A stretch of DNA of 64,000 bases from Obrimoposthia wandeli (GCA_977020255.1 CDROCS010001071.1:1984001-2048000); one strand, 5' to 3'. Shown: positions 1 to 18,478, numbered from the stretch's first letter. The notes: generated by a model not told the origin, from the letters alone. Program-made: numbers and translations.

Positions 1-33
1 GAAGAAATAGTTGAGGAGGATATAATTGAAAAT

Positions 34-3000
34 ATGGCTCAACCAGGAGCTCCAGTAGATAATAATGCAGGAAATAATGTAGGAGACATGAATGCAGAAC
101 AATTGGCACTAGCCTTAAATGCGACGTTGAGACCCAACTTTTCAGGATCATTGCAGATTACAAAGTTTAAAGGAGATGAGGAAAGTATTTGTGACTTCCT
201 CGCAGAATATTCGAGTTGTGCAGATGTTCAAGGATGGAACGATAGAGAAAAATGTATCCGTGTGCAGGCACATTTGACCGGATTGGCACTTGAAGTGTAT
301 AAACATTTAACAGAAGCAGAACGTTTAGATTGGGCAACGTTGGAAAATGCTTTTATTGGAATATTGGTATTGGGAGATTTAGCAAAAGTGAATAAGCGAA
401 TCATGAGAGAACGGAAACAGAAACATGACGAAGGCGTGAATGAATACGCGTATGTTTTGAGAACCTTGGCCGCAAGAACGTACCCAAGAATAATAATGAG
501 AAATCAGGACGGTAACCCTGTAGCTCCAGAAGCACAAGTAGCGGAAAATAACCGGAACCAAAATGAAATGGCAGAAGTTTTGTTAGACATATTTAGAGGA
601 GGACTGAAAAAAGATATTAAAGTGTTATTAGCAGTATCAGACACGAATGATTTTGATAACGCCGTACGAAAGGCGAGAGAGATTGAGAAAAATATAAAAA
701 ATAACGCAGCAATGGCAATTTATGCAATGACCACAGGTGATGACGATAAGACAAAAGTATTCGTGAATAAAACAGAACCGAGTAATTTTCAGAATCGAAA
801 TTATGGACAAAATAAGTTTGAAAAAGGAGATGAATCCAGTAACGGAAACAGAGATAATTTCCGAAATAGGAATCGAGATGATTCGAGAAGTAGAAATAAT
901 AGTGAGTCTTGGAACAGGAATCGAGATGATTCAAGAGGTAGAAATAGTAATGATTCGTGGAATAGAAATAGAGATGATTCCAGGAATAGATTTAGTAGAG
1001 ATAATTCAGGAAATCGCCAACCTTGGAGAGGGGACGATAGGAATTACAACGCAAACAGAGGAGAGCGAAGTGACTCTCGATTTGGAAATAATACAGGAAG
1101 TAGGGACGGAAGATTCAATAATCGAGGAAGTGGTTTTGAATCGAATTTCCGAAGAAATTATTTTAGAGGACGCTATGACAATAGACAGAATAGTCGTCGA
1201 GTACAGTTCGAAGATGAACAAAATAAGATAGATATTCGAGGGAGAATAATGTGTTACACGTGTAAACAAATGGGTCACTATTCGAGAGATTGTACGAGAA
1301 GTAAAGAGTTCGGAACTAACAGATTTGGAAATAATAATTTCGGAAATAATAATTTTGGAAAAAATTATAGAGGATATAATTCACCTCCGCCATGGAATAG
1401 AGGTGGTGGATATACTCCACAGCCATGGAGACCGAATAACCAGTATACAGATAGACAACAGTCACCAGGTAGATACAATAACTATGCAGATAGACAGCAA
1501 GGAGCTGAGAGATACAATAATTACGTAGGACAGCAAGTAGCTGAGAGATATAATAATTCCGGTAGATATAATAATAATAATGTTGACAAGACAAATAGTC
1601 GTGAGAGTTCGCCGAAACCGAAAGGAAATTTTAGTTACGTAAATGATGACAGCGATAGGAATCGCGAGACCGAGCTTCGACGCGAAATTGATTTTGAAGA
1701 TAGTGATAGTAAATTTGAACGAATGTTAGGAATAATTAAAGATTCACCACATACAAAGATGGCGAATTCATCTACGTTGTCGAAACAAGAAAAAAGTCTA
1801 CACTCGAGAGAAGAGATAAATGATTTAATGAACCGAATACTAGAAGCGTATGAGACACCAATAGAGAAAACGTGTAACGCACAACCTATGACTGATCACA
1901 TAGAAGCAGCAAGAAATGCTACAAGTATGGAAAATTTAAAAAAGATAATTAGTGAAGCTAAGGAGACGTTGAATCAACCGTTAGATGAAACGAGTGAAGC
2001 TCCAGAAGTTTTGGCCAAATTGCAAACAATTAAAGTGCACAGATTGGAAGAAGTGCGAGCAGAATTGGTTAAACATAGTCATGATAACTTGGGTTACAAA
2101 GAAGTACCACGAGGATTATTGAAAGGATATGGTCGTTACGTACAGAGATCAAACCAAAATGGAACGATGAAAATTTCGCTTCGATTAATTTCCGGACAGA
2201 TTATACATGAAAAACTTAACGTGTATCAAACAATGAAAACTATTCGAAAAATGTTGGCCGAGAAACTTGAAATTGATGGAATGAACATGTTGTTCCATTA
2301 TAAAGGAAGATCACTAGATGACGAAGACGTACCAGTCGAGTGCGGATATCCAATAGGAAACGAATTAGAGGAAAAAATTGATGTCATTACTGTAGAACGT
2401 CAAGAGTTAGTAGATAATGAAGGATTAACGGAGATATTAAACTCCGCGTTAGAAATGATTAAAACGCCTATAGAAATTTTAGACAGTTCAAGCGAAAGCG
2501 GAGATAATGATGTAGCTGAAGCTTGGAACAAGACATCCACACCAGAACCGTACGTAGCTGAATTACAAGACGTGGAACTAGAAAATGAGTTGACGACTCC
2601 GTTGGTCGAAGTACCACCAGAACCAGAGATAATTCAAACCAGACAAGATGAAGTAACGGATATAGCTAACCAAGTGAGACAAAACGAAAACGTAACCCAA
2701 CTAGTAGGAGAAGACGAAATCTCCGAAATTATAGATTTAGATTCACCAATTTGGCATGCTGCATACAGAGATAGACAAGCAGAGCAGATGATGCGACAAA
2801 ACGAAGAGATTGGCCATGAAGAAGGACCAAGTCAAGAGATACAGTATAATGGTGAACCGTATGATCCAGGAGAGAATCAAACTGAGTATCAGTATTTTCG
2901 AAGAGGACCTGGAAGACCTAGAAAGGACGGAAGTATATTACGAAATGTTCTAACTGCACCACAAACTGATGAGGAGAGACATCTAAGCATTGGACAGTTA

Positions 3001-6000
3001 GCAGCGTCATTAGAGCAGTATAGTACGGAGCGAAATGAAGATATCAGAGGTGATATGAATTCGGAAGCTCCAAGTAGTAAAGATATACTTACGGGAATTC
3101 TCAGGCAAGTGAAGCCGAAGTTGTTCAAAATGTACAAAGATGAAACAACCGATATAACAGACAATTTGACTAAAGCAGTTAGATCACAAATGTCTGCAGT
3201 AAAGAGAATGACTGCGAATCATGTATACCATGCATCAATAGATAGATTTTATGACGGTGAAGTTTTAGCAAGATTATGTGGAAACCAGACTACAAATAAA
3301 AAGTTAATTACAGCAATCACATATCTATGTTTCCAATTGACGGAACGAACGAGCCAATCTCACGAAGTCAAACAAGGAATAAATGAAGCGATGTATTTGA
3401 TCGAGAATGTATTGCAGAGACGAATTGACGAAAACGGAGGTTGGGCAAAATTAAGTGACTACGCTAAAACCATTGTGGAAATGAACGAAGACGATGACAA
3501 ACAATGTCATGAGAACCGGCAGAGAGAAAATAAACAATACCGTCCGAAAGAAAGAAACAATCAACCAAATATGTCCACAACAATGATGATGATGATGTTA
3601 GTAATGTTCATGGGAATGCAACAGGCATCAGGGTTGATAGCATACGACTGTAGCATACCAAAAATGGGACAAAAGTATTCACTGCTTGACAGCGAAAACT
3701 GTCCAGAATCACAACCGTCAAAATTAGAAGTTAAAGGTGTTGAAAACTACTTTGTGTATCAGGATGTTGATAAGATACAAGTAGAATTGAAAGAATGTTC
3801 AGTCCATTCAAGTTATCACGAATTCTATTGTGGCCATAGAGGTTTTATGTCGGAAATCACATCTACCACACCGTACAAAGTACATAAGGTTTTTCCGAGA
3901 GATTGCGAAGACGCATTTCGAACAGGAACAATAGACAAGAATTACAAACCTGATGTAAAAGTTGGGGTGAGACGATACGAAACAGTCACGAGAGTAGGAC
4001 AACGATGGCCTGATGGATCTTGTGACGGAGGAACAAAAAACGTGCGTGGTACCAAAGTAACAGAGTTAGTAATGGACGTAACTTACAAAATCGAATTAAA
4101 AACATGGACCGCCAATTTTGATAAAAAGACACAACGAATGATGAAGTATCCGGAATGTAAAATGACAGATGCATCTTGTTTTACAGGTGAATCCACAATT
4201 GTGTATCACGTGAATCCGAAACAATGCTCTTTAGTATTTTTGAAAGAAATTAGTTTTAATAAAATAAAAGGGTTCCTGTATAATAAAGATGGAGAAGGGT
4301 TCCTGTATAATAAAGTTGGAGAAGGATTTCATAATGAAACAAGACCAATTCCTATGACGGCGACACCTACACTGTTAATGGCAACGTCAACAGAAGAAGG
4401 ATTGATATTTATTAAAAAGAGAAATAAAGCGCGATGCGGAATGACTGTTAGTACTACAAACTATCCTGGAATAGTTTTGTCCAGAGAATTAATAGCATTG
4501 GCAGAAACCAAGCTAAAACCTAGAGATATGCAGCTACACACGTATTTTAATAATAAAATTGATTTTTATTATCATAAAGGATTGATGCAAATGGAACAGT
4601 TATATCGGATGATGATCGAGAGAGATTGCCAGCTAAACAAAGAGATCGTAAGAACAAAGTTAGCATTAGCTATTACGAATCCAGACATGGTAGCACCATT
4701 ATTACCCCTGGATGAAGGAGTATTTGCTAAAACCATGGAAGAAGTATTGTATACTTACAAGTGTAATAAAGTAGAAGTACAGTTGAGAAAAACAGATCGA
4801 TGTACGAGTGAATTGGCCGTAACGCATAATTTAAAAGAACTCTTTGTTGAACCAATCACGAGAATGATACTTCCAAAAGACACTCCAACTAAAGAAATCA
4901 GCTGCTCTAATATAATGGCACCTGAATATCAGATGACGAATGATCTATGGATAACGCTACCTGACCGAAAGCCAACGAAAACTCCAGAGATGATAAAAAT
5001 GACAAATCTTAAAGGAAAAATGAAATTCGAAGCGGTAGAAAATATGGAGAACGCAGGTTTGTACAATGAAAAAGACTTAAAAGCGGCCTGGAACGAAATA
5101 ATGTTTCCAGTAAAAAGGGCCAGAGTACTTACGGAGATGGTACATCGAGCATTACCGCCAGGAGCTAGATATGCGAATTTTGATATGTTATTATCGCCAA
5201 GCCATTTCAAGGAAGCAGCACATCAGACACTTAGAAAGATGTGGGGGAAATTCCTTGTTTTAGGACAATTATTTTCGGGTATCATAGGTATTTATGTTAT
5301 AATTAAATTTGTGCAGGTAATTATAGCCCATATGTTGTCTACGTATAGTTTATACAGGATAACCGGAATCACCTGGCAACTTATAATTGGATGTTTTCCA
5401 TTTTTAGCAAAATATCTAATGCACCATCATCACGAGAACGAGTTGCGAGCCCTCAAGAAGGAGCAACATCAAACGAGAACCATGATGCGAAACCCAAGAA
5501 ACTATCGAGACGACAACAACGACGATAATGATAGTCCAGGAGAATATGCAAAGATACCAGGAAAACCAAAGATTCCGTTACCAGACAAGGAAGAAGTGGC
5601 GCTAAACCTATATCCAATGAAGGAACTAAAGGAAGAGAAGGAAAAGTTCAAGAGAGGCATTTTAATGATAAGATGGCCTAAAGTGAACTACAGTAAGATT
5701 CCAAAAGCAGAGGAAAAAGACAAAAAAGATAATTCAAGAAGAATTCTAAAGTCTAGGATATCCAATGAGAATCCAAATGCTCCACCACAAGTAGCAGTAA
5801 CACTGAACGGAAGAGAATATCTTGCCGAAGTCGATACTGGATCTGCAGTATCAGTACTGAGTAAAGAAATCTTGTCATCAAAAGAATTAAGAGAAGTATG
5901 TCCTAGAAAACAGACATTTGTTAACGTAAACGGTACAGATGTAGTGTCAGAAGGAACACTGAAATGTTCATTAAATATCGATGGAAGAGCATTGCAGTTA

Positions 6001-9000
6001 AATGCTAGAATATTCACAGATTGCGGTAGTCCAGTCATGATTGGGATGGACGTAATACGGATGTTTGAAGGAATAATTATATTACCAAACAACAAGAGTT
6101 TTAAGAACGACAGTTCAGTGAGAGAGATAAAAATGTTGAGAGGACCTATAGTCGAAAAGGAAAAATACACTATGTTCCGTATGGGAAATCCGTACCAAGA
6201 TAAGAAACAGGAAGCGCTAGTAAAGTCGATACTTCACTACAAAGATGTAAACTCCGGACCACAAGCTATGACGAGGAGGAAAATAACATATGTGAATCTG
6301 TCAGAAAAAGATCCCTTGAGAATCGAGAAAAATAGACGAAAATCATTAGAACTGTACTATTCAAAAGAAATGGCACGTAAAATGGCAAGATCAGGTTTAC
6401 AAATGTTAAACGCGACAAGTAGTTATGGTCATGAGGAAGTAGTACGATGCGTATGGTGTAGAGTAAAGTTTAGAAAGTGGGAGAAGAATGAAAACCCAAT
6501 GAAACGTCATAAAAGAGATGCACCAAATTGCCCATTTCTTTTGAAACTGAAAACTTCAAAAATACCAGAAATCCAAATGGGAAAAGCACCCGATTTCGAT
6601 TACAGTGACGAGATTCCAAAAGGAGAATCAACTCTAATAGTAGGCAGAGTAATAACAAATAGCCGAATTGAAGACATATTCGAAGTTATGCGAGAAGTGA
6701 ACGAATGTGCCGAACAATATCGAGAAGTAACTTTCGAAGATCCAAGACTTAAAAGATTGGCAAAAAAGGGACTTTTTGCTATAAAAAAGGATGGTAAAGA
6801 CGTAATTAAATGCCACAAGTGTAAAAAAGAACGAATTATCGACAGATATACTCTTGAGTTACCTAAGAAAACTTTACATCACGAATTTTGTGAATTTTGT
6901 ATTTTTAAAAACAAAATAAAGCAAAAAGAACAGAAAACAGAATGTATAATCGAATACCAAATCACACGGAAAGAGATTTTGGCTCAACAAGACACACCGG
7001 TAGTGTCATTCGTGAGAAGACTATATCCAAAAGAAGCAGAAAGAATCAGAGATTTGGTAGAATTAAAAATAAAAACTACACGAAACGGATACGGATCGAT
7101 TTTTGAATTACTAAAAGATAAAGATGATAGTACAATTGAAACAAAAGAGAAAGAGTACATAAACGAACTAGAATACGTACTGGAAGATCCGGAATGTGCA
7201 GTTTGCATGGTCAACAAAATAGAAGTTGCCTTTTTACCATGCGGACATGTAAGAACATGTCGGAGATGTGCGAAGGAAATGGTATCATGTCCGATTTGTA
7301 GAAGGATAATATATCGACAAGTGAGAAATATTAGATTTCACTATCCAAACAAAGGAAGTGGACCGACAGAGTTTAATAATTCGATAAATACAATATACCA
7401 CATGGGAAATATAAATGGAGCACAGCGACCAGCAGCTATCATTAGAGTAAATAATTTAAGAGTAAAAGCCTTAATTGATACAGGTGCGGTAGCTTCGATA
7501 GTAAGTGAAGATTGTTTGACGGAGGAACAGAAACGAACAATGGCAGAACCAGATGAATTCTTGGTATCGGTCAATGGAGACCCTGTAAAAGTGACGGGAA
7601 TATTACCATGTACATTTATAATTGGATGTAATACGATCACTATACCAGTTAGAATCATGAAAAAATGTCCTGAACCTACAATTTTAGGAATGGATGTACT
7701 ATCACAACTCAAAGGGATAAGTATTGATTTACAAGATCCAAGATTGAAGGATAGTACATCAAACAGACAAATAAACCAAATTGATGTAATTATAGAAAAT
7801 CCTATAAAAATCGGTAAAAGATCACAATTTCTCATTCAAGGTCACACATTGTCAGAAGATAAAGGACCAGTTGTGTTCGAACCATCACGGGATTTCATAG
7901 AGAAATACGAATTACCAATTGTGATTACAGCATGTCTGATTGAAAACCACAAAATACCAGTCAGACTGATGAATACAACCAACAATGACATCCTGTTATA
8001 CAGAGGAATGAGGTTGGGAAAGATAGCACAGATGGAGAATCCCACTGTGTGTGCTATGAAACTCGATAAAGACACGAATGATTACGAAGAAATAGTAATC
8101 CACTCAGAAAGACTGACAACTAGAGAAAAGAAACCATTACTTGATCTAATACATAAATTTCCGAAAGTAATTGCAAAAAATCCGTATGACATAGGAGAAA
8201 CACCTGTAATAAAACACACAATACCGCTGACGGAAGACAAAGTAGTCAGAAGAAGACCATATCGAGTACCATTACAGTTACAAGATGAAGTAAAACGTCT
8301 GATTGAAGATATGTCTAAAACAGGAGTAATTAGACCGAGTTTTTCACCATTCTCAGCACCTGTAGTGTTAGTAAAAAAGAAGGATGGAAAAATGAGATTC
8401 TGTATAGACTTCAGAGAACTGAACAAGATCACAAGAAAAGATGTGTATCCATTACCTAGAATCGAAGAGATGCTCGATAAATTAGGTAATTCAGATTATT
8501 TTACGACATTGGATTTGCAGAGTGGATACTGGCAAATCGAGATAGAGGAAGAGAACAAACACAAAACAGCCTTTTCCTGCGGAGATGGACTATACGAATG
8601 CGAAAAAATGCCATTCGGACTGACAGGAGCTCCAGCAACATTTCAGCGTTGCATGAATTTTGTACTCGCATCGTGTGCAAACACGATGGTTTATATCGAT
8701 GACATAATAATATTTTCTAAAACGTTCGAAGAACATTTAAAAAATCTTGAAGTTGTATTTAAAAGACTGGAAAACGCTAAATTAAAAGTTAAACCTACAA
8801 AATGCGATTGGGCTAAAGAGCGAGTAACATTTTTAGGACATATAGTATCGAAAGAATGCATCCGACCTGATACAGCAAAGATCGAGAATGTAAAAGCGCA
8901 TTTAGCGCCAAAGACTGTTAAGGAAATACAGAGTTTTTTAGGTCTTGCGAACTATTATAGACGATTTGTTGTACATTTTTCGGATATAGCAACACCATTG

Positions 9001-10152
9001 AGAAAGTTGACGAGGAAAGATGAGAAGTTCATATGGGGAAAGGAAGCACAACAAGCGTTCGAACATTTAAAAGAAAGACTGATAAAAGCACCAATATTAG
9101 CGTTTCCAGATATAAACCGACAATTCATACTCATGACAGATGCAAGTAACTATGCTGTAGGAGCAGTATTGGGACAAGAGGATGACGAAGGAAGAGAACA
9201 CGTCATCGCGTATGCGAGTAGAGGATTAAACAGAGCCGAAAGAGGATACTCTGTTATTGAAAAGGAATGTCTAGCCATAGTGTATTCATGTAGACAGTAC
9301 AGATACTACTTGCTAGGACAAAAAGTATTCCTGTATACAGATCACAAACCACTACAGTTCTTGTATAAACATAGAGATGAGATGAGTAGATTAAACAGAT
9401 GGTTTCTAAAATTGGCCGAATTTGACCTAGAAATCCGTTATAGAACCGGAAAGTCGAATGGCAACGCAGATTGTTTGTCGAGGTTGACAAATGTAGACGA
9501 GAAAGGAAACATAATTCCAGAAGAAGATGAAACCAACGACCAAAAAGGAGAAGCAAATCTACTAACGATTTTGCTGAAGACGGGTAAAATAGACAAAGAG
9601 ATCATCAAAGAACAGAAAGAAGATGAAGAATTGAGTCTAATAAAAGAACTGTTGGTGAAAGGAGATCTAAACGATGAAATGACGAAAAAATACTCGATAA
9701 AAGAAGGAATCTTGTATATTGTCAACAATGTCGGAAAGATAGTAGTAGTAATTCCGAAGTCATTGAAAACAGCAGTGATGATCCAGTATCACGATGGAAC
9801 ACTAGGAGGACATCTGTCAGGACGAAAGACAATAGCCAGAATCAAAGAGAAATACCATTGGGATGGTATGGAAGATGACATAAAACAATGGTGTAAACAA
9901 TGTAAAGTATGTTTAACCAGAAAAGACACCGGAACTCGTACTAAAGTTCCATTAAAACCGATGCCAGTTCCTTTGGCACCAATGGAATTCACAGCGATGG
10001 ATATATTGGGACCATTGAGAGAATCAAGTAAAGAAAACAAGTACGTCATAGTATTTACGGACTACATGACGAGATGGATAGAAGCATATCCCATGCAAAA
10101 CCAGAAGGCTGAAACAATAGCGCAGATCTTAGTGGAAGAGATAATATTTTGA
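34..10152 (+). CDS. Gag-Ubl-Bcl2-like-Env-PR-IAP-PR-RT-RH-IN polyprotein, 3372 aa, truncated in the integrase core by TGA
   Basis: Uninterrupted ORF with Gag core (~150-700), CX2CX4HX4C, two DTG proteases, YIDD RT, RNase H (TDASNYAVGAVL, TDHKPL) and integrase HHCC + DILGP. The frame is also open from base 1, so the true start may be upstream. Confidence 0.95.
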   Translation: MAQPGAPVDNNAGNNVGDMNAEQLALALNATLRPNFSGSLQITKFKGDEESICDFLAEYSSCADVQGWNDREKCIRVQAHLTGLALEVYKHLTEAERLDWATLENAFIGILVLGDLAKVNKRIMRERKQKHDEGVNEYAYVLRTLAARTYPRIIMRNQDGNPVAPEAQVAENNRNQNEMAEVLLDIFRGGLKKDIKVLLAVSDTNDFDNAVRKAREIEKNIKNNAAMAIYAMTTGDDDKTKVFVNKTEPSNFQNRNYGQNKFEKGDESSNGNRDNFRNRNRDDSRSRNNSESWNRNRDDSRGRNSNDSWNRNRDDSRNRFSRDNSGNRQPWRGDDRNYNANRGERSDSRFGNNTGSRDGRFNNRGSGFESNFRRNYFRGRYDNRQNSRRVQFEDEQNKIDIRGRIMCYTCKQMGHYSRDCTRSKEFGTNRFGNNNFGNNNFGKNYRGYNSPPPWNRGGGYTPQPWRPNNQYTDRQQSPGRYNNYADRQQGAERYNNYVGQQVAERYNNSGRYNNNNVDKTNSRESSPKPKGNFSYVNDDSDRNRETELRREIDFEDSDSKFERMLGIIKDSPHTKMANSSTLSKQEKSLHSREEINDLMNRILEAYETPIEKTCNAQPMTDHIEAARNATSMENLKKIISEAKETLNQPLDETSEAPEVLAKLQTIKVHRLEEVRAELVKHSHDNLGYKEVPRGLLKGYGRYVQRSNQNGTMKISLRLISGQIIHEKLNVYQTMKTIRKMLAEKLEIDGMNMLFHYKGRSLDDEDVPVECGYPIGNELEEKIDVITVERQELVDNEGLTEILNSALEMIKTPIEILDSSSESGDNDVAEAWNKTSTPEPYVAELQDVELENELTTPLVEVPPEPEIIQTRQDEVTDIANQVRQNENVTQLVGEDEISEIIDLDSPIWHAAYRDRQAEQMMRQNEEIGHEEGPSQEIQYNGEPYDPGENQTEYQYFRRGPGRPRKDGSILRNVLTAPQTDEERHLSIGQLAASLEQYSTERNEDIRGDMNSEAPSSKDILTGILRQVKPKLFKMYKDETTDITDNLTKAVRSQMSAVKRMTANHVYHASIDRFYDGEVLARLCGNQTTNKKLITAITYLCFQLTERTSQSHEVKQGINEAMYLIENVLQRRIDENGGWAKLSDYAKTIVEMNEDDDKQCHENRQRENKQYRPKERNNQPNMSTTMMMMMLVMFMGMQQASGLIAYDCSIPKMGQKYSLLDSENCPESQPSKLEVKGVENYFVYQDVDKIQVELKECSVHSSYHEFYCGHRGFMSEITSTTPYKVHKVFPRDCEDAFRTGTIDKNYKPDVKVGVRRYETVTRVGQRWPDGSCDGGTKNVRGTKVTELVMDVTYKIELKTWTANFDKKTQRMMKYPECKMTDASCFTGESTIVYHVNPKQCSLVFLKEISFNKIKGFLYNKDGEGFLYNKVGEGFHNETRPIPMTATPTLLMATSTEEGLIFIKKRNKARCGMTVSTTNYPGIVLSRELIALAETKLKPRDMQLHTYFNNKIDFYYHKGLMQMEQLYRMMIERDCQLNKEIVRTKLALAITNPDMVAPLLPLDEGVFAKTMEEVLYTYKCNKVEVQLRKTDRCTSELAVTHNLKELFVEPITRMILPKDTPTKEISCSNIMAPEYQMTNDLWITLPDRKPTKTPEMIKMTNLKGKMKFEAVENMENAGLYNEKDLKAAWNEIMFPVKRARVLTEMVHRALPPGARYANFDMLLSPSHFKEAAHQTLRKMWGKFLVLGQLFSGIIGIYVIIKFVQVIIAHMLSTYSLYRITGITWQLIIGCFPFLAKYLMHHHHENELRALKKEQHQTRTMMRNPRNYRDDNNDDNDSPGEYAKIPGKPKIPLPDKEEVALNLYPMKELKEEKEKFKRGILMIRWPKVNYSKIPKAEEKDKKDNSRRILKSRISNENPNAPPQVAVTLNGREYLAEVDTGSAVSVLSKEILSSKELREVCPRKQTFVNVNGTDVVSEGTLKCSLNIDGRALQLNARIFTDCGSPVMIGMDVIRMFEGIIILPNNKSFKNDSSVREIKMLRGPIVEKEKYTMFRMGNPYQDKKQEALVKSILHYKDVNSGPQAMTRRKITYVNLSEKDPLRIEKNRRKSLELYYSKEMARKMARSGLQMLNATSSYGHEEVVRCVWCRVKFRKWEKNENPMKRHKRDAPNCPFLLKLKTSKIPEIQMGKAPDFDYSDEIPKGESTLIVGRVITNSRIEDIFEVMREVNECAEQYREVTFEDPRLKRLAKKGLFAIKKDGKDVIKCHKCKKERIIDRYTLELPKKTLHHEFCEFCIFKNKIKQKEQKTECIIEYQITRKEILAQQDTPVVSFVRRLYPKEAERIRDLVELKIKTTRNGYGSIFELLKDKDDSTIETKEKEYINELEYVLEDPECAVCMVNKIEVAFLPCGHVRTCRRCAKEMVSCPICRRIIYRQVRNIRFHYPNKGSGPTEFNNSINTIYHMGNINGAQRPAAIIRVNNLRVKALIDTGAVASIVSEDCLTEEQKRTMAEPDEFLVSVNGDPVKVTGILPCTFIIGCNTITIPVRIMKKCPEPTILGMDVLSQLKGISIDLQDPRLKDSTSNRQINQIDVIIENPIKIGKRSQFLIQGHTLSEDKGPVVFEPSRDFIEKYELPIVITACLIENHKIPVRLMNTTNNDILLYRGMRLGKIAQMENPTVCAMKLDKDTNDYEEIVIHSERLTTREKKPLLDLIHKFPKVIAKNPYDIGETPVIKHTIPLTEDKVVRRRPYRVPLQLQDEVKRLIEDMSKTGVIRPSFSPFSAPVVLVKKKDGKMRFCIDFRELNKITRKDVYPLPRIEEMLDKLGNSDYFTTLDLQSGYWQIEIEEENKHKTAFSCGDGLYECEKMPFGLTGAPATFQRCMNFVLASCANTMVYIDDIIIFSKTFEEHLKNLEVVFKRLENAKLKVKPTKCDWAKERVTFLGHIVSKECIRPDTAKIENVKAHLAPKTVKEIQSFLGLANYYRRFVVHFSDIATPLRKLTRKDEKFIWGKEAQQAFEHLKERLIKAPILAFPDINRQFILMTDASNYAVGAVLGQEDDEGREHVIAYASRGLNRAERGYSVIEKECLAIVYSCRQYRYYLLGQKVFLYTDHKPLQFLYKHRDEMSRLNRWFLKLAEFDLEIRYRTGKSNGNADCLSRLTNVDEKGNIIPEEDETNDQKGEANLLTILLKTGKIDKEIIKEQKEDEELSLIKELLVKGDLNDEMTKKYSIKEGILYIVNNVGKIVVVIPKSLKTAVMIQYHDGTLGGHLSGRKTIARIKEKYHWDGMEDDIKQWCKQCKVCLTRKDTGTRTKVPLKPMPVPLAPMEFTAMDILGPLRESSKENKYVIVFTDYMTRWIEAYPMQNQKAETIAQILVEEIIF
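1252..1293 (+). other. Gag CCHC zinc knuckle (CYTCKQMGHYSRDC)
   Basis: Exact CX2CX4HX4C motif inside an R/N/G-rich region. Confidence 0.93.
2167..2400 (+). other. Ubiquitin/SUMO-like (beta-grasp) domain in polyprotein
   Basis: MKISLRLISGQII...TMKTIRKMLAEKLEI...LFHYKGRSLDD resembles ubiquitin MQIFVKTLTGKTI...TIENVKAKIQDKEGI...LIFAGKQLED; no terminal GG. Confidence 0.7.
2899..2925 (+). other. AT-hook motif RRGPGRPRK
   Basis: GRP core flanked by basic residues. Confidence 0.6.
3073..3480 (+). other. Divergent Bcl-2-like domain
   Basis: BH2-like RRIDENGGWAKLSDY (cf. WIQDNGGWDAF), preceded at the expected spacing by a BH1-position hydrophobic helix (TTNKKLITAITYLCFQL); NWGR not conserved. Confidence 0.5.
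3571..5420 (+). other. Envelope glycoprotein, chuvirus/gB-like class III fusion protein type, with internal signal peptide and C-terminal TM
   Basis: Signal peptide MMMMMLVMFMGMQQASG|LIAYDC and a Cys-rich ectodomain. Motifs YFNNKIDF..., DCQLNKEI..TKLALAITNPD, EVLYTYKCNKVEV.LR.T.RCTSELAV, LFVEPITRMIL and GLY resemble chuvirus glycoproteins. TM at ~5251-5337. Confidence 0.8.
5782..6063 (+). other. Retropepsin aspartic protease 1
   Basis: LAEVDTGSAVSVL (DTG at 5833) and C-terminal MIGMDVI. Confidence 0.88.
6325..7302 (+). other. IAP module: BIR (6325-6540), degenerate BIR (~6712-6900), C3HC4 RING (7195-7302)
   Basis: R..S...MARSG...VRCVWCRVKFRKWEKNENPMKRHKRDAPNCPFL is a canonical BIR with CxxC..H..C. 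RING CAVC..AFLPCGHVRTCRRCA...CPICR is IAP-type. Confidence 0.9.
7438..7710 (+). other. Retropepsin aspartic protease 2 (canonical pol position)
   Basis: VKALIDTGAVASIV (DTG at 7477) and ILGMDVL; followed by the usual gypsy PR-RT linker. Confidence 0.92.
8200..9490 (+). other. Reverse transcriptase and RNase H
   Basis: SPFSAPVVLVKKKDG.MRFCIDFRELN, LDLQSGYWQ, MPFGL.GAPATFQR, YIDD (8692-8703), FLGH, TDAS, EKECLAI, TDHKPL. Confidence 0.97.
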
Positions 10153-10720
10153 TACGGAGTACCTAGAAAGTTATTAACGGATCAAGGTAAGAACTTCACT
10201 GGAGAAGTAATCAAAGCAGTATCGAAGATATTCGGAATCATGAAGTTACAAACTTCACCATATCACCCACAAACCGATGGTCTAGTAGAAAGGTTTAATA
10301 AAACTTTATGTATGATGGTACAATCCTATTGCTCAGACAAGCAAGAGGATTGGGATAAATATTAGAACAATATGCCAATGATCTGGAGTGGACCGAACCA
10401 ACATCTCAGTATCTAGAAACTGAACAATACATTGTCGTTATGAAAGAAAGATTGCAAGATGCTTGGACTAAAGCAGGATTGAAACTGAAATTCAATCAAG
10501 AAGGTTACAAGGAACAATATGACAAAAAGGCAAAACCACATGAATTTAGAGTCGGAGACCAAGTGATGATATTTTATCCAGTCATCGAACCAGGTCTATC
10601 GTTTAAACTTCATAGACCATACAAAGGACCATACAAGGTGATACAGACAACCTCAACAAATTTGAAAGTAATCAACGAGGAGAACCGGAACAAAGAACCA
10701 ATGATTGTACATGCAAATCG
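9780..10720 (+). pseudogene. Integrase, disrupted (TGA at 10150-10152; deletion/frameshift at ~10362)
   Basis: HHCC finger and DILGP are followed by a TGA, then in frame YGVPRKLLTDQGKNF...SPYHPQTDGLVERFNKTL. The usual 'PYVLFAYRT...TPF' segment is missing, and the frame resumes shifted with a GPY/F motif (KLHRPYKGPYKV). Confidence 0.9.
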
Positions 10721-12041
10721 ATGTAAATTAGTACCAAATAAAGATAACACGTCACGATACGAGTTAAGATCACAGAAATTGAAGCCGAATACCAATACCA
10801 TTAAACTTACACGAATGGTAAGTGATCGAAACTACATAAATATGATGACAAGTGGTAGCGAGAGAAAACCAGTGAGAATTGGTATGCTCAGAATGAAGCA
10901 CCAAGAGGAAAAAGAAGTAATCCGACACATCGCACCACAAGAGATATTGGAAGAAGACGAAGAGATAATAGTTGTTTTCGAAAGAACACAACCAACAGAT
11001 GTGGCGAAAGAAGTCATTGTGAAAGATGCACTGACAAACGAATTTCTATGCGAACTTAGAGTGTCATACTACGACGGAAATACATTAGTCGCAGAACTAC
11101 ATCAAAACTCCAATGTGTTTACGACTGAGAAAGTGATCATCGAAATCACATTGACACCAAACATAGTTGCATGGCAGAACTATGACAGTACTGAAGCAGG
11201 ACTAGCATGTCAGGAAGAAAAAGAACCGGCCGGTGGTCACATACTGCATGGTACACCAAAAAGACTCAAACAAGAATACCACGATGTAATAATGGTATTA
11301 CGTAATTCACATGGGAAAAGAGACATAATGAGAGTTCATTTAATCGACGCTGACACTGAAAAGATAATCTGTCAGATGGACACCAAATACTTTGACGGAA
11401 AGACCATTGTATGTAATATACCGGAATCTCACCAATTAAACACAGATCAAACGGAAGTATCTGTAAGGTTGAGCGTAATAGAAGGATTTCATTCGCCAAC
11501 CCAACCGGAAGTAACAAACAATGAAATCATTAAAGCAACGGCAGAGTTACGCATTGACAGCGGATACCGGAAGTGGGAAGCTAAAAATAAACCACAAAGA
11601 ATCAATATGATCCGAGAACAAGTGACAACCTCAATTCAACCAAAATATCATGCTGAAATAGTATCAACCGCACCAAGTGTGATTACATCGATAAACGACG
11701 AAATTATAATTTTACTAAAAAATCGATGGCCGTCATCAACCGAGATACGAGTCAATTTAATTAATTATGCGAAAACACCCATATCTAAGCTGAATGTCAC
11801 CTATTTCGATGGATTGTCCATCATGGGTAAATTGGAAACAATTGTCATGTGCTACGGAGCACAGTTCCAAGTTGAGATACTTAAAGATAGTGTAATACCG
11901 TATCCAATTCACAGATACGCAGGACCAGTCAATCCAATTATTCTAACCCCTTCATTAATTTCAGTTCAGACAGACATACCAGAATTCCCTTCGAACGAGT
12001 CTAGTCAAGACAGCGAACCTGAAAGTAGCGATCCAGAATAA
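10440..12041 (+). CDS. Integrase C-terminus (GPY/F) plus three ~65-aa repeats of an unknown domain; frameshifted continuation of the polyprotein
   Basis: Frame open from 10362; FRVGDQV...KGPYKV; repeats share Y(Y/F)DGx(T/S)(L/I). Confidence 0.8.
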   Translation: MKERLQDAWTKAGLKLKFNQEGYKEQYDKKAKPHEFRVGDQVMIFYPVIEPGLSFKLHRPYKGPYKVIQTTSTNLKVINEENRNKEPMIVHANRCKLVPNKDNTSRYELRSQKLKPNTNTIKLTRMVSDRNYINMMTSGSERKPVRIGMLRMKHQEEKEVIRHIAPQEILEEDEEIIVVFERTQPTDVAKEVIVKDALTNEFLCELRVSYYDGNTLVAELHQNSNVFTTEKVIIEITLTPNIVAWQNYDSTEAGLACQEEKEPAGGHILHGTPKRLKQEYHDVIMVLRNSHGKRDIMRVHLIDADTEKIICQMDTKYFDGKTIVCNIPESHQLNTDQTEVSVRLSVIEGFHSPTQPEVTNNEIIKATAELRIDSGYRKWEAKNKPQRINMIREQVTTSIQPKYHAEIVSTAPSVITSINDEIIILLKNRWPSSTEIRVNLINYAKTPISKLNVTYFDGLSIMGKLETIVMCYGAQFQVEILKDSVIPYPIHRYAGPVNPIILTPSLISVQTDIPEFPSNESSQDSEPESSDPE

Positions 12042-13310
12042 AAGAATCCGAAGATAACATAATAGAGCGATTCGAAAAAACCATGGAGGTTGAATTCGCT
12101 AAAGAGAGCAGAAAAAGACGAAACATAGAATTCGTGAAACAGAATATACAAGAAAGACGAATCAAATCTGCAGAAGAGACCGAGTCGGAAGAGGAATCAA
12201 CAAAGGAACAGACATCAGAGACAAAGATGAATATATCTCCAGCAATACGAATGCTGAGAGGAAAGAAACTGGCGAAACTATCCAACATTGACGAACAAAT
12301 AAAGAAGAGATTAGAAAGACTAAAACTTTAAGAGTCAGAATTAATGCCACCAATGAGTGAGATCATTCCAGGTAAGTTATACCTCGGAAATGTGGAAGAT
12401 GCAACAGACGAAAAGAAACTGTTGGAACAAGGGATAACATACGTGATCAACGTTACAATGAATCACAAATCTTAATATCAGACGATCAGAGCCATGACAT
12501 TAAGAGTAAAAGACTCAATGGAGGCTAATCTTCTCGAATGGTTCGTAAAAACAAACGAGATACTTCACAGAGAACTCCAAAACCAAGGAAAAGTGTTGGT
12601 ACATTGTCAGAAAGGAATCTCCCGATCAGCAACCCTAGTATTAGCGTATCTAATAAAGACTAGACGAATGCAGGTACTAGAAGCGCTGAAATACCTGCAG
12701 GAAAGAAGAAGTATTGCAAACCCAAACCTTAATTTTTTGGGACAATTGTCAAATTACCAACTCCTGTTGCAAGAACAGAGACGGATGGACGACATCCCTG
12801 AGGATCCAAAGGAAAAGAATTTCCTCCAAGCACTATCGTTGACCGGATTATTCTTAGCCGGAGTCGATAAAATCACTCAGATAATGCCGAAAGTATTTTT
12901 ATGTTATCCAGGAGATATAGATACCGCTGGATTAAAGTTCCACAGTATCAACCGAGTAATTAATATTGTCGAAGTCGGAAATGAGATAATCAGTCTGTGT
13001 CAAAATACTGAAGATGACACAACTCGATACATACATGCTTCCAATCGAGAGATAAATGATGCACAACAACATCTGATGAAATTGACTCAAACCATTCAAG
13101 CCGAAGTCACAGAAGGAAACGGCGTTCTGATATATCAGAAAAAGGTACAATGTTAGCTCCTACCATAGGTGTATCCTTGTTGGTAGAGTACCATGATCAT
13201 ACACCAGAAGAAGCGATGGTTTATATCAAACAGAATAGACCAGACACGGAATTCAAACCGTTACTCGTTCGAGAAATAGAGAAGTACTCCGAAAAGAGGA
13301 AGCAACAACG
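12029..13310 (+). pseudogene. Charged linker plus tandem dual-specificity phosphatase domains (first with intact HCX5R, second degenerate)
   Basis: One frame from 12029 to 13156 with stops at 12329 and 12473: MSEIIPGKLYLGN..DA...GITYVINVT, VHCQKGISRSATLVLAYL, RSIANPNLNFLGQL. The second domain (ITQIMPKVFL...EEAMVYIKQNRP) crosses a frameshift at ~13140. Confidence 0.85.
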
Positions 13311-13794
13311 AGAAACAAATGAAGCTACAACAACAGTACCCAGCTATCAATACCAAAGATTGCTAGCACTAGGCTTGTTAAATTGTTTGATGCCGATAAC
13401 AGGAGCACAAGAGATAGGCTCCAACCACGGAAATAGTTCATGGTTCAAAGAAATCAACAACTACATCATACAGTACCATACACCGGCACTGATGATGCTA
13501 TTAGTGTTGTTAGGACTAATTGATGTGTGGGTCATCCGAAAATGTCTCCGATCTATGAGAACCGACAGTAAAAGATTTCAGTTTGTAAAGATGAAGAGAC
13601 CAACTGGACCAACGAACCAAGTACTTGTGTATCTAGACGAAAGGATTGAGGATAACATAGTGAATGAAGCGATATTCTATCCACAAAACAGAATACTGAA
13701 TCAATTCCGAATAGTTACGAAGCTGATCGACAGCGCACACTTGACCGAATATCAGCAACATTCGCCGGATGCAGGCGAAGAAAACGAATTGTAA
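13150..13794 (+). CDS. Polyprotein fragment: end of pseudo-phosphatase, signal peptide plus TM cassette
   Basis: LLALGLLNCLMPITGA|QE followed by TM ALMMLLVLLGLIDVWVI. Confidence 0.65.
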   Translation: MLAPTIGVSLLVEYHDHTPEEAMVYIKQNRPDTEFKPLLVREIEKYSEKRKQQRETNEATTTVPSYQYQRLLALGLLNCLMPITGAQEIGSNHGNSSWFKEINNYIIQYHTPALMMLLVLLGLIDVWVIRKCLRSMRTDSKRFQFVKMKRPTGPTNQVLVYLDERIEDNIVNEAIFYPQNRILNQFRIVTKLIDSAHLTEYQQHSPDAGEENEL

Positions 13795-13883
13795 AGGAAA
13801 TACAAAAAGATGCGGATACAAAAGGTCCGACGTATATATTCGACGGCGATGTCATCAAAACACGTGAGTATGGAAGTAAGAGA

Positions 13884-14267
13884 GTGATAATTGAAACGAT
13901 GGAAGGACATAAAACATGCTTGTCCGCCAAAAATGGATTCGGAAAGTTGACGATACAAGGTAAACAGGTACAGTTGATTATCGGAAAAACTGGAATCGAA
14001 GATATGTCAAAACAACGACAGACAACAAAACGACCTAACCAGAAACATATATTTCTCAAACGAATGATAATCAAAACCCTTTGCAAAAGGACAATCAAGG
14101 CCCTGTGCACCGTTGCACAAGGATTAATCTACGGAGTAGTAATTGGATTGGTACTACAAGCCATTCCAACCAGTAAAGCTGAATTGATGACACTATCCGA
14201 ATATAATTTACATTTGAGAAATCTAGACAACACCCTAGAAATAATCAAGACGTCCCACAGTATGTGA
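13884..14267 (+). CDS. Polyprotein fragment ending in a signal-peptide-like segment
   Basis: Frame open from ~13790; LIYGVVIGLVLQAIPTSKA|EL; overlaps the next ORF by a -1 shift. Confidence 0.55.
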   Translation: MIIETMEGHKTCLSAKNGFGKLTIQGKQVQLIIGKTGIEDMSKQRQTTKRPNQKHIFLKRMIIKTLCKRTIKALCTVAQGLIYGVVIGLVLQAIPTSKAELMTLSEYNLHLRNLDNTLEIIKTSHSM

Positions 14268-16060
14268 AAGGATGTCCACGACGAATGTGTATAGTCCCAG
14301 CGACCGAAATGAAAACACTTAATGGACATTATGGAGTTAGTGTTGTCACATGTGAAGATTACACATTTGGACAAACTAAAATAGTACTTCTCAGTGACAT
14401 GTCCAACCAAAGTGTACATAAATTTAAAATATTAACCATCAAGAGTAAAGGGATACCAGCAATACGTTATGGTATTCTAGAATTGGTTAATGCAATACTG
14501 GCATTGATCATAGGATTTATAATATTAATATTACTCATATTGTTTTGTTGTACAAAGATAGAGTTGAGATCAAAAAAGAAACGTCATGATCTCGCAAGAC
14601 AAACAGGTCAAATGAATTTACAAAAATTCAACACAAGTATACCAAGACCAGCATTCCTAAATGAACCAGCACCAGAGTACCAGCCAACAATATATGAACA
14701 TATCGAGGAAAGACCGTACTATATGAGTAACTTGAGTTGTTCCAGAGAAGTTCCTGAGATTCGGAACCGAACGATATTAGGAATCATGCTGATCATGCAA
14801 ATCACCACGACCGAGGCTGGTTATGAGATCATGATCAGTAAATGGAGACAAGATACGATACGTGCGTTATACATAGAAATCCCTCTATTAAAAACAAATC
14901 ACGTAGTAGACATTCACTTACAAACGTCAGCAACCGACAATGTCGATCAGAAATTGTATGTCATCCGACAGGTCAGAATAAAGATTGACCAACATACACC
15001 TTATTACCGACTGATATTATTCTATCATGAAAGGGTGTTATACCTACGGATAACGATATCAAAGAGGAAACGGATTATTCAAAGTATCCGAACAAAGTCA
15101 TTAATATTGCCTAGAGATGAGCGAATATGGAAAGTTGTCGACAGGATTATGATCACAGGTAGACGACGTAAAACCGTATGGAATTCCGTTAGAATATTCT
15201 TCAGATTGTTAGAAACTGACCAGGCAACAGTGGCGTGTCTCAATCCAGATGGTGGAATCAGATTCGAAATTCAAAACCAAATGTTAATACCACATTTTGA
15301 TGCAGAATGTCTATGTAACCGAATTCCCAGCAATGCTAGAGAGACCACTACCATAATCATGGTAATAACAGGTGAAATATTCTACATAACTCTAAGATAC
15401 CAGACACGTCGATTTCGTGGACTCGGTATAAGTATTAAACCCAGGAAAATTATTTCCGGAAAACCAATCAAGGTCATAAAAAAGGAAAAGGTGAAAGGAA
15501 GTAAACGTCATTCCAAAAAGCCAATCATAATCAAAAAGAAGGCAAAGGTAAACGGAAGTAAACGCCATTCCGAGAAGCCAAAAGTAGTCATAACAAAGGC
15601 AGAAGTGAAAGGAAAAGAGCTCAATCCCAGAAACCAAAGTACAAGTATTAAGAGGACAAGAGTGAAGGGAACGATCCCACTAGATCCCAAACATCATTTC
15701 CAATCTAAATTAATAATACCTGTTCCACCGGAAACAAAATATCCAAATCCGCGAGTTATTAGAAAATCGGACATAATACATGGAAACCGATCAACACCAA
15801 TGGAAATGTCATTCAAACCGACAAACAACAAAATGAAGTATGATTATCAATCATCAGACAGCGGAATAACAGCGGTCAATGCTCTAATTGGAATGGCAGT
15901 AGTGTCAACAGCAGTGGTCCTATTGACAGTCGTGTGCGTGAAAGGCAGTCAAGTATGTCCAAGAATACGACGAAAATGCGAAGGACTGCGATGCTGTAAC
16001 ACACCCACAATGGAGGAAGTGGAATTGCGACCCTTACCTCCGCCTCCCATCAAGACATGA
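14264..16060 (+). CDS. Polyprotein C-terminal part: TM, signal peptide, ectodomain with Lys-rich duplication, TM, Cys/Pro-rich tail
   Basis: 598-aa ORF with TM ILALIIGFIILILLILFCC, signal TILGIMLIMQITTTEA|GY and TM ALIGMAVVSTAVVLLTVVCV. A homologous relic lies at 56500-56815. Confidence 0.75.
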   Translation: MKGCPRRMCIVPATEMKTLNGHYGVSVVTCEDYTFGQTKIVLLSDMSNQSVHKFKILTIKSKGIPAIRYGILELVNAILALIIGFIILILLILFCCTKIELRSKKKRHDLARQTGQMNLQKFNTSIPRPAFLNEPAPEYQPTIYEHIEERPYYMSNLSCSREVPEIRNRTILGIMLIMQITTTEAGYEIMISKWRQDTIRALYIEIPLLKTNHVVDIHLQTSATDNVDQKLYVIRQVRIKIDQHTPYYRLILFYHERVLYLRITISKRKRIIQSIRTKSLILPRDERIWKVVDRIMITGRRRKTVWNSVRIFFRLLETDQATVACLNPDGGIRFEIQNQMLIPHFDAECLCNRIPSNARETTTIIMVITGEIFYITLRYQTRRFRGLGISIKPRKIISGKPIKVIKKEKVKGSKRHSKKPIIIKKKAKVNGSKRHSEKPKVVITKAEVKGKELNPRNQSTSIKRTRVKGTIPLDPKHHFQSKLIIPVPPETKYPNPRVIRKSDIIHGNRSTPMEMSFKPTNNKMKYDYQSSDSGITAVNALIGMAVVSTAVVLLTVVCVKGSQVCPRIRRKCEGLRCCNTPTMEEVELRPLPPPPIKT

Positions 16061-16184
16061 TAAGTCAGAGGAGGTTGTAGATAAATTAGTGTGTGAAATA
16101 TGTAGAAATATCTAGAAGCGATTGTACAAATAAGTAGAAATATGTAAAACTCATGTAGAAATTAATTGTCATCATGTATTTAGA

Positions 16185-16484
16185 ATGTCCGAGGAATGCC
16201 CAATATGTTTGGAAGATTTAACCGAACGAATAACAAGACCCGAAACCTGCAACCATTTACATCACAAGGAATGTTTATCAAAATGGATCAGAACTTATGG
16301 AAAATTCGTACATCCAACATACCCTCGTTGCCCTGTATGCAGAAGACAATTCACAAAGTTCATCATGATAGAACCCAACCAAGAGGATGTAGATGTACAG
16401 GTGGTATTCTGTTGGAAGAATTTCAGAGAGTGTTGGTGTTACTACTGTCTGTCAGAACGACAAAATCCGACCACTTTTGTGTAA
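16185..16484 (+). CDS. RING-H2 protein 1 (putative E3 ligase), element accessory gene
   Basis: CPIC...CNHLHHKEC..W...CPVCR plus C-terminal CW....CWCYYC. Confidence 0.85.
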   Translation: MSEECPICLEDLTERITRPETCNHLHHKECLSKWIRTYGKFVHPTYPRCPVCRRQFTKFIMIEPNQEDVDVQVVFCWKNFRECWCYYCLSERQNPTTFV

Positions 16485-16544
16485 ACATCACACAACCACC
16501 AGTCCTCAATCGAGCCCAAATTCAACACCAACCCTCTCACAGTA

Positions 16545-16850
16545 ATGTCTGGAGAATGTTCCATCTGCTACGAGAACATCGTGGACCTCTCCACCAAACC
16601 CAACAACTGCGACCACCAGTTCCACGTCGAATGCCTCGAGACGTGGATCCCAATAGCCAACAACAACAATCCCCTCGACTACCCAAACTGCCCGATGTGC
16701 AGAGCAACCTTCTCGGTGCACTATGTCTACAACCGGGACAGCCTCCAAGCAGTGGTACCCATTGTACACTGCTGGAAAAACATCTGCGACTGCTGGTGTT
16801 CGTTCTGCGTGGAGGAGCGACGCACAGTCCAGCCCAACACCCAGCAGTAA
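16545..16850 (+). CDS. RING-H2 protein 2 (paralog of RING 1)
   Basis: CSIC...CDHQFHVEC..W...CPMCR plus CW....CWCSFC; GC-richer than surroundings. Confidence 0.87.
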   Translation: MSGECSICYENIVDLSTKPNNCDHQFHVECLETWIPIANNNNPLDYPNCPMCRATFSVHYVYNRDSLQAVVPIVHCWKNICDCWCSFCVEERRTVQPNTQQ

Positions 16851-17202
16851 CCGAAGGTAACTTTCTGACTTAAAACGTGACATCATGAACTACCCCTGTG
16901 TATCGCATACCGCGATAAATTAGCTACCATAATTGTAATCATAATTGTATAATCTTGTGAAACTGTAAAATGACCATTACCATTTTTATGTATGTTGTTT
17001 ATTTGAAATTGTAATTATTATACTGAAACAAAAGACAATTTTTATGCTTAGTATGAATGTGAAAAACATGCCTAAAATCAAGACAGAACTCGGTAGGATT
17101 AAAATACTAAGGTTTATGATATTAAAACTAAAATATTAAATTCGTAAATTAATATTAAAACCAAGTTGTACCCCGAATTAAAAAGAAGTAATTATTGAGC
17201 AG

Positions 17203-17715
17203 ATGATTTGCTCAATCTGCCTCGAGACCATCCGGCAAGCGTCGGCAAAACCTGCTGGGTGCCAGCACAAGTTTCACGAAGCTTGCCTATACAAGGGGGC
17301 CAGATCCCTAGCCCTATCCGCAGGGCACATCACTTGCCCAATGTGCCGCACCCCCTTCGCCGAATGGGCACTCAAGTGCCGAGGACGCCTGAAGGGCAAT
17401 CGCTCTCTGGCAACCTGCATTGGCGGACAGCACTGCAGATGCTTCGTGTGCCTGGCGCGCCGTCGAGACGTGCAAATTGGCATCCGCGAGCGATGGCGAT
17501 CTAGCCGCGACTGCCGCTCATGGCAGCAGGGCAGACGGTTTTGGATCGCAAACAATCGGCTGTACGGCTTTGACTTAATTGTCGAAAGCCCCCATCTGAG
17601 TCCTGCCCAGCAGTCGGCCTTATACACAGGGGACACTCCGTCCTTTCCGGACCTGCCCCTGGAGCATATAATGCTCTTCCTAGACGATCGGAACATGCCG
17701 GACATGGATGACTAA
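17203..17715 (+). CDS. RING-H2 protein 3 with C-terminal extension
   Basis: CSIC...CQHKFHEAC...CPMCR plus C......CRCFVC; GC-rich. Confidence 0.82.
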   Translation: MICSICLETIRQASAKPAGCQHKFHEACLYKGARSLALSAGHITCPMCRTPFAEWALKCRGRLKGNRSLATCIGGQHCRCFVCLARRRDVQIGIRERWRSSRDCRSWQQGRRFWIANNRLYGFDLIVESPHLSPAQQSALYTGDTPSFPDLPLEHIMLFLDDRNMPDMDD

Positions 17716-18270
17716 ACTGATTCATTCCCTTTTTCTGTGCTACATTTTTAGTTATGTATATAATATAATTGAACATTTGCGACCGTGTCCGAATTTTTCA
17801 TAAAAAAAAATAATACCGAGTTTTGACAAAACTTTTGGGCCTGTTTGATGAGTTTGAATGATTGAAATTAAGTGGGGATATTTCTAAAATCTGAGGCTAA
17901 TAAGTTTAGTAAAATAAAATCGATACGTTCCGGGGACGTAACTTTTTCAGAACCCCCGAGATATGTTAGGTTTAGGTTTTGGAAACAAATTAAATAATTA
18001 ATTGATTTTATAGTAAAATGAAAATCCTTGAAAGCAAGGTTAGAATTAAATAAATTTTATATTAAAATTAAAATTGTTGAGTTTAGATAGTAAATAAATA
18101 TTAGAGGACCACGAAGGTCGTGTGTAATGCGTAAGTATATAAGATATTAAGTTTAAAAACAAAGGGCCCCAAAAAACAGAGTTGCCAAGAAGAAAAAAGA
18201 ATTACAAAGAAAATTGGAAAGACAAGTGCAATTAGCAGAAAATTGGAAAATATCATTAGAAGAAAAATCA

Positions 18271-18478
18271 AGCCACGTCAACTCAGCCACGTCACAACAG
18301 CTGTTTTCCTGAGGTAATTAATTACTTGAACTTGGCTCAAATTAGAGAATCCTCGTTGAAACGAGAACCACAGGAAGAAGTGAGTGACAAGCCACGTCAC
18401 CCAACAATCCACGAGAAGAAATCCATTGCCAACAGCTGGACTCAGTACACACGCCTAAATAGAAAATAGACTATATAA
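18271..18478 (+). promoter_or_regulatory. LTR promoter: three AGCCACGTCA bZIP sites and a TATA box (TATATAA, 18472-18478)
   Basis: Exact 10-mer at 18271, 18285 and 18390, upstream of TATA. Candidate leader splice donor AAG|GTAAGA at 18563. Confidence 0.55.

Follow-up and report, generated by a model that had tools for sequence, protein, structure and literature searches.

The stretch of DNA analysed here (64,000 nucleotides, henceforth the window) opens with a single stop-free frame of 3,383 codons on the plus strand (1-10152), which reaches 107 codons further upstream and carries the open part of a Gag-Env-Pol polyprotein. The premature stop that ends it in the integrase core (10150-10152) is private to this copy (0 of 12 aligned copies), and its first ATG, at position 34, was found in 13 of 13 copies. 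In eight copies, the window's included, the frame is also open for 114-124 codons ahead of this ATG (9680-10000 in copy L011; 1-33 in the window), a stretch in which a non-AUG start or a splice acceptor is possible. The domains encoded in this one frame are, in order, Gag, a zinc knuckle, a ubiquitin-like and a Bcl-2-like domain, a signal-like stretch, a glycoprotein, a protease, BIR and RING domains, a second protease, reverse transcriptase (RT), RNase H and integrase; the succession of protease, RT, RNase H and integrase behind an upstream Gag is that of Ty3/gypsy elements.

At the Gag end, the capsid-like region (34-750) gave a weak match to Retrotrans_gag (E 0.14) and a blastp match (E 6e-26) to the N-terminus of homolog P0014, which itself matches Retrotrans_gag above the Pfam cut-off. 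It is followed by a CCHC zinc knuckle (1252-1296, residues 418-432; PF00098), i.e., the nucleocapsid, and by a ubiquitin/SUMO-like domain (2179-2346) that was detected by Pfam (ubiquitin, E 0.056) and by a PDB search returning ISG15, ubiquitin and SUMO (best E 0.003). The next domain (3085-3489) was recognised as Bcl-2-like by fold alone, in a model (pLDDT 73) built from a shallow, partly misaligned alignment of 10 rows: the top 25 VIA matches all belonged to the Bcl-2 family (best Z 9.5, rmsd 2.9 over 115 aligned residues), as did every Foldseek match, albeit at E of 0.016 or above, and a PDB search with the sequence of this part gave no match.

The preliminary description of this locus had placed a chuvirus-like fusion glycoprotein at 3571-5420, in frame between Gag and protease. 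This holds, with the refinement that about 750 residues, including the ubiquitin-like and Bcl-2-like domains, separate the capsid part from the glycoprotein. Specifically, the Pfam family PF24664 (Monjiviricetes_fusion) spans residues 1194-1841 of the frame with an E-value of 1.9e-90. The ectodomain (3634-5235) comprises 534 residues with 14 cysteines and one N-glycan sequon; in 13 of 13 homologs the cysteine count is exactly 14, and the number of sequons varies between 1 and 3. The best matches among viral models were the glycoproteins (G) of chu-like, xinmo- and qin-related negative-strand viruses (E 7e-40, about 20% identity).

The class III homology that had been proposed was likewise borne out by comparison with herpesvirus gB. 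A model of the glycoprotein built from 118 sequences reached a mean pLDDT of 89, and all 40 of the PDB matches listed by Foldseek were herpesvirus gB (best E 1.8e-12); VIA aligned the model with gB over 401 residues (Z 11.5, rmsd 8.0). Sequence identity to gB is 9-13%. A profile search of solved structures gave gB in 35 of 37 rows, weakly (E of 0.016 or above), and a single-sequence search of the same structures gave nothing meaningful. Judged by the fold of the model, the glycoprotein is thus best described as a class III fusogen, with a predicted fusion activity.

The glycoprotein is flanked by features that would pass it through the membrane. At residue 1191 (nucleotide 3571) begins a Met-rich hydrophobic stretch that resembles a signal peptide (3571-3633); it ends in QQASG, directly ahead of LIAYDC, with a predicted signal-peptidase site at ASG/LIAYDC, which agrees with the small-residue rule of signal peptidase. 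The SGL-IAYDC sequence is kept in 35 of 39 loci, and a hydrophobic core lies right ahead of an AYDC-type motif in all 18 embedded homologs examined. Bcl-2 proteins carry a membrane tail after the domain, and the Env signal sits at about the corresponding place behind the Bcl-2-like domain (3085-3633); the remnant of a cleaved signal could possibly serve this domain as a membrane anchor.

At the other end of the ectodomain, a membrane-proximal helix and the main transmembrane span (5242-5325; span at residues 1757-1775) form the strongest hydrophobic peak of the frame and a long helix in the model. A second, weaker hydrophobic segment with a Gly-x-x-Pro motif follows (5359-5415, residues 1787-1805) and is modelled as a broken helix. 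Taking one internal signal and one main span together, Gag and Pol would both lie in the cytosol, a topology derived from rough hydrophobicity scales rather than from a trained predictor. The preliminary description had named a lack of class III homology and a protease and RT in the ER lumen as findings that would speak against it; neither was made, since the homology is present and Pol is predicted to be cytosolic.

The second hydrophobic segment bears directly on this topology. Were it to cross the membrane, the protease side would end up in the ER lumen in at least some chains, and its conservation, together with a score close to that of the signal core in the window protein (3.25 vs. 3.44), would fit such a crossing. 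However, its score falls short of that of the main span in 13 of 13 homologs, it contains Pro and Lys/Arg, and 2-6 basic residues stand behind it; moreover, RT, which must act in the cytosol, carries no amino-acid change shared between copies. We therefore regard a second crossing as very unlikely, the segment more likely lying on the membrane surface or dipping into the membrane and returning.

Another question is whether Env depends on the upstream frame at all. It might mainly be made alone, with a subgenomic or spliced RNA as its message or with translation starting internally at the run of Met codons, its in-frame fusion being incidental; indeed, the signal stretch of the window protein begins with six Met codons, and 6 of 18 embedded homologs have a Met near the core. 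Yet the remaining 12 have no Met just before the core, and among the 17 protease-linked proteins described below not one has a stop between Env and protease. Furthermore, the five slippery heptamers found in 3400-7500 each open just 6-28 codons, with no convincing frameshift among them. Separate production of Env is on these grounds improbable, and we favour the reading in which Env is translated as part of the polyprotein.

Downstream of the membrane segments lies a first aspartyl protease (5791-6054, residues 1931-2018; DTG at residue 1945), followed by an IAP-like module (6364-7311) with a BIR (residues 2122-2180; PF00653, E 4e-13), a weak second BIR (E 0.033) and a RING (residues 2396-2437; PF13920, E 6e-11), and by a second aspartyl protease (7423-7716, residues 2475-2572; DTG at residue 2493), both proteases being recognised by Pfam. 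The BIR-RING module is thus flanked by two proteases, which would together excise an IAP-like protein. Several homologs likewise have two proteases, and the number of DTG-type motifs in homologs ranges from 1 to 5. RT, RNase H and integrase follow in Gypsy order (8371-10149; Pfam). The preliminary description had deduced ER insertion and a membrane-tethered Pol from this arrangement. The predicted internal signal and anchor are in line with the insertion, but a protease whose DTG is intact lies about 170 residues past the membrane span, so that the tether would probably be short-lived.

The rest of the family frame, which is broken in the window copy, extends from 10359 to 16060 on the plus strand and encodes the integrase C-terminus, a beta-rich region, a dual-specificity phosphatase and several signal-like or membrane segments; its stop (16058-16060) is common to 12 of 12 aligned copies. 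The beta-rich region that follows the integrase (about 430 residues long, 10740-12035) gave a weak IPT/TIG-like lead only (atlas search, 0.87, low recognition). The phosphatase (12332-12790) has an intact HCQKGISRS motif and is closest to the MAPK phosphatases DUSP10/DUSP4 (E 3e-19); Pfam detected a second, weaker stretch (12332-13300 in all), and the polyprotein of copies with a long open frame includes the domain. Past the integrase, several signal-like and transmembrane segments (13360-15950), for which neither Pfam nor the atlas search found a family, have counterparts in the hydrophobic pairs of homologs P0007, P0013, P0014, P0015 and P0024, and their sequence suggests further membrane passes.

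Beyond the family stop, three small, separate open reading frames (16134-16484, 16485-16850 and 17182-17715, plus strand) each have a RING finger (zf-RING_2, above the cut-off). They are more GC-rich, lie just before the 3' LTR and are conserved in other copies, their stops being common to 12 of 12, 12 of 12 and 8 of 10 copies, respectively. The 3' LTR itself (17964-20665, plus strand; TG...CA) has ends that match the paired LTRs of other copies and an internal tandem array of 34-35 bp units (18844-20170), the length of which varies from copy to copy and, within a copy, from one LTR to the other. No 5' LTR was found in the 20 kb upstream of the window copy, and its primer site is also missing.

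The element belongs to a high-copy, LTR-bounded family of about 22-23 kb that has a single frame of some 5,300 codons. A DNA search with the glycoprotein stretch gave 40 scored places (of 4,144 first-look candidates) and a family search 68 (of 20,254), neither figure being a copy number. All 40 scored places, i.e., the window and 39 copies at 97-98% identity, matched the whole glycoprotein stretch, so the in-frame glycoprotein is far beyond chance and not an assembly artefact. Ten copies were read over 40 kb, and six of them allowed both LTR ends to be located, with TG...CA ends at a distance of 19.7-23.2 kb and, in five of these six, an exact 4-bp target duplication. An identical 17-nt primer-site motif, which would presumably match elongator tRNA-Met, was found in 12 of 14 long copies; a search for a tRNA gene complementary to it gave 0 matches. 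Paired LTRs, a primer-binding site and a short target duplication, all characteristic of Ty3/gypsy elements, are therefore present in the family, of which the window copy retains the 3' LTR only.

All 14 long copies are broken in the long frame, each at different places. Natural open frames of 3,703, 4,335 and 4,645 codons together cover its whole length by overlapping, and in one copy a single frame of about 5,300 codons can be read that is interrupted by one stop. Given that 10150-10152 is a stop in the window only and that 12 of 12 copies end at 16058-16060, we put the family frame at about 5,300 codons.

We then considered how the glycoprotein has been maintained among the copies. The G region is without stops or frameshifts in 30 of 43 other copies. 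Ectodomain variants present in at least 2 of 44 copies comprised 54 nonsynonymous and 111 synonymous changes (ratio about 0.13, compared with 0.38 for private variants), and the shared variants of RT-RNase H (in up to 15 copies) comprised 0 nonsynonymous and 36 synonymous changes, figures that lean towards intact copies because the copies were picked as best matches and transition bias is unmodelled. On these sequence comparisons, the glycoprotein is under purifying selection, and the family, which is high-copy and has expanded recently, thus shows a gB-type Env that is still being selected.

Such selection could in principle serve a role other than infection: Env might be a scaffold that tethers anti-apoptotic and signalling domains, or act in intracellular budding, with the element spreading within cells only. 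The Bcl-2-like, IAP and phosphatase domains of the polyprotein fit this idea, as does a second-hand report that the BIR-RING region of the planarian element Burro1 protects stem cells (PMC13465017). A 534-residue ectodomain with 14 cysteines, a conserved gB-like fold and a record of purifying selection nonetheless goes beyond what a tether needs, which makes a purely non-infectious role rather unlikely in comparison with that of a fusion glycoprotein.

The surrounding sequence holds further features. Diverged fragments (74-79% identity) resembling the LTR end, the LTR start and the 3' coding end were found at 38473-38698, 42569-42679 and 56506-56699 (-), indicating older relatives nearby. A zinc-finger (Spin-doc/BED-like) frame and its neighbour (39500-41095) are likely the remains of a DNA transposon, and an uninterrupted frame of 204 codons on the minus strand (55210-55824) encodes a GNAT acetyltransferase. 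The assembly is mixed, containing many bacterial-type COX1 genes, a multi-copy COX1 and the COX1 of a second animal. The multi-copy COX1 (2 copies examined) has AAA at four positions that are Asn in another animal COX1, and ATA at Ile-type positions, a usage that presumably reflects the flatworm/echinoderm mitochondrial code and does not single out triclads. Considered along with the affinities of the element, it makes a free-living flatworm the likely host.

To place the glycoprotein among its relatives, we collected homologs at E of 0.001 or below, which gave 1,169 cluster representatives, the best 150 of which were listed, and further relatives in metagenome assemblies. In eight of the ten longer metagenome matches, Pfam coordinates or motifs place G before a protease, with G 36-42% identical to that of the window; a ninth, P0013, also has G followed by protease (36% identity), and the one remaining match is a BEL/Pao protein of a mosquito. 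A FastTree tree was built from 135 of 160 proteins, 25 having been dropped as too short. In seventeen of the 135 rows, the window's included, G is followed within the protein by a protease or RT motif, and the G of all 17 falls into one clade of 22 rows (support 100), the other five being three rows with long N-termini and two fragments. The tree's count of four changes stems from truncated rows with long N-termini within this same clade. The G of the mosquito Pao protein (P0016) lies outside the clade and is 24% identical to that of the window. Because the tree is midpoint-rooted, we read it as evidence of shared ancestry and not as pointing to a donor.

These relationships qualify a further claim of the preliminary description, namely that the element captured its glycoprotein independently. 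The lineage does stand apart from the mosquito Pao (Anakin-type) G, as this clade structure shows, the nearest viral models are chu-like G, and elements of the same Gag-Env-Pol layout are not monophyletic on the POL tree (PMC13524379), all of which would fit a fresh capture of a chuvirus glycoprotein by this element. Yet the window G is 27-42% identical to that of the protease-linked homologs (for RT-RNase H, 50-62%) and only about 20% identical to viral G, and all protease-linked G share one clade. In addition, the eight domain I/II cysteines and the motifs recur, judged by eye, in six Schmidtea errantivirus Env rows (PMC13524379), and the layout itself has been published before (PMC6431247). 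A fresh capture is thus very unlikely indeed, and Env would instead have been acquired once, long ago, in this Gag-Env-Pol lineage.

Taken together, we consider it probable (at roughly 0.8) that the Env gene at this locus belongs to a giant Gypsy LTR retrotransposon of Burro type and shares one frame with the preceding Gag and the following Pol, its predicted product being a class III fusion glycoprotein that would pass through the ER membrane while it is being translated. In the mechanism we envisage, the Gag, ubiquitin-like and Bcl-2-like parts would be synthesised in the cytosol, after which the internal signal would engage the translocon and be cut by signal peptidase at ASG/LIAYDC, so that the signal remnant would keep the Gag side anchored. 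The ectodomain would then fold in the lumen with up to seven disulfides, and the one stop-transfer span would return the chain to the cytosol, where both proteases, the IAP module, RT and integrase would be made and then freed from the Env tail by the element's own proteases. Produced jointly at a single membrane, Gag, Env and Pol could thereby enter enveloped particles, with Env mediating fusion with a neighbouring cell. While the layout as such is known, this reading makes sharp predictions: a mature N-terminus of LIAYDC, 14 conserved cysteines, one span and two proteases.

A more far-reaching version, which we offer as a tentative possibility and think doubtful as a whole, is that of an infectious, flavivirus-like flatworm retrovirus. 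The chain of 5,300 residues would pass through the ER several times, and signal peptidase would free both the class III fusogen and small post-integrase membrane proteins. The Env signal remnant would act as the tail of the Bcl-2-like domain and anchor Gag for budding, and the IAP and MAPK phosphatase set free by the two proteases would prevent the death of the producer cell. Burro is known from certain triclad families, and the host might belong to none of these.

The viral systems that this processing calls to mind fall into two groups. In the structural polyproteins of flaviviruses, hepaciviruses and alphaviruses, the capsid is followed by an internal signal that is cut by the host signal peptidase, which frees the glycoprotein. 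Glycoproteins of the flavivirus/alphavirus type are, however, class II fusogens without homology to the Env described here, and these viruses do not use reverse transcription. The G proteins of Jingchuvirales and Mononegavirales and herpesvirus gB, by contrast, resemble it in fold, in their cysteine-rich ectodomain and in their C-terminal anchor; they are stand-alone genes with an N-terminal signal.

Among LTR elements, the mosquito BEL/Pao element Anakin also combines an LTR retrotransposon with a chuvirus-like glycoprotein of the PF24664 family, as in P0016 (Dezordi et al. 2020, PMC7642597). It belongs to a different superfamily, its G (in P0016) stands after the RT and Pao peptidase domains and falls into a separate clade, and the Pao-type domains DUF1759 and Peptidase_A17, both present in P0016, were not found in the window protein.

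The closest published counterpart is the planarian Burro (GYPSM1/Burro-1 to -4), in which an env matching mononegavirus glycoproteins follows BCL2 and precedes the protease within the frame (Arkhipova and Yushenova 2019, PMC6431247); BURRO1 RNA is present in planarians (PMC8532177). The position of the glycoprotein in a Gypsy polyprotein, which the preliminary description had set against the usual place of env 3' of pol, is therefore not unprecedented, being on record in that work and for the GAG-ENV-POL elements discussed below. Compared by its published description (PMC6431247), Burro shares with the present family a single giant ORF of about 5,000 codons, a Gag with CCHC knuckle, ubiquitin/SUMO-like and BCL2-like domains, an in-frame env before the protease, a BIR, the order protease-RT-RNase H-integrase and many copies. 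The present family measures about 22-23 kb with about 5,300 codons, whereas Burro exceeds 30 kb with ORFs of 4,873 and 5,140 residues, and one knuckle was found here compared with two or three in Burro. Because the length falls short of 30 kb, we classify the element as Burro-type and not as one of Burro-1 to -4. MATH/TRAF, ankyrin and dUTPase-like domains gave no Pfam match in the parts scanned; such domains vary among Burro elements, and the dUTPase-like domain of Burro came from HHpred, not Pfam. The two proteases, the phosphatase, the post-integrase membrane modules and the three RING ORFs are not named in the portions of PMC6431247 and PMC13524379 available to us, and other Burro literature may hold them. 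Finally, on the strength of HHpred, PMC6431247 ties the Burro env to the F-type Env of gypsy. The model obtained here has a class III fold instead, which assigns the Burro-type Env to class III and not to the F-type.

Elements with the order GAG-ENV-POL and a gB-type ENV have since been described from Nematoda, Bryozoa and Platyhelminthes (Chary and Hayashi 2026, PMC13524379, citing Sacco 2022 for those of nematodes). The available text of that study does not discuss single-frame processing or topology, and the word polyprotein gave 0 hits there; the literature on Burro env and chuvirus-gypsy polyproteins yielded no account of processing. With Smed_errantivirus_1-6 (cysteine type C1a, PMC13524379) the present element shares a Ty3/gypsy POL, a gB-type Env between gag and pol, the cysteines and motifs noted above, multiple near-identical copies and, probably, a flatworm host, although it represents a different family in, likely, a different host. 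Its Gag-Env-Pol layout with a gB-type Env thus repeats the reports of 2019 and 2026, as set out in the sources available to us, and the family described here joins them as a new member.
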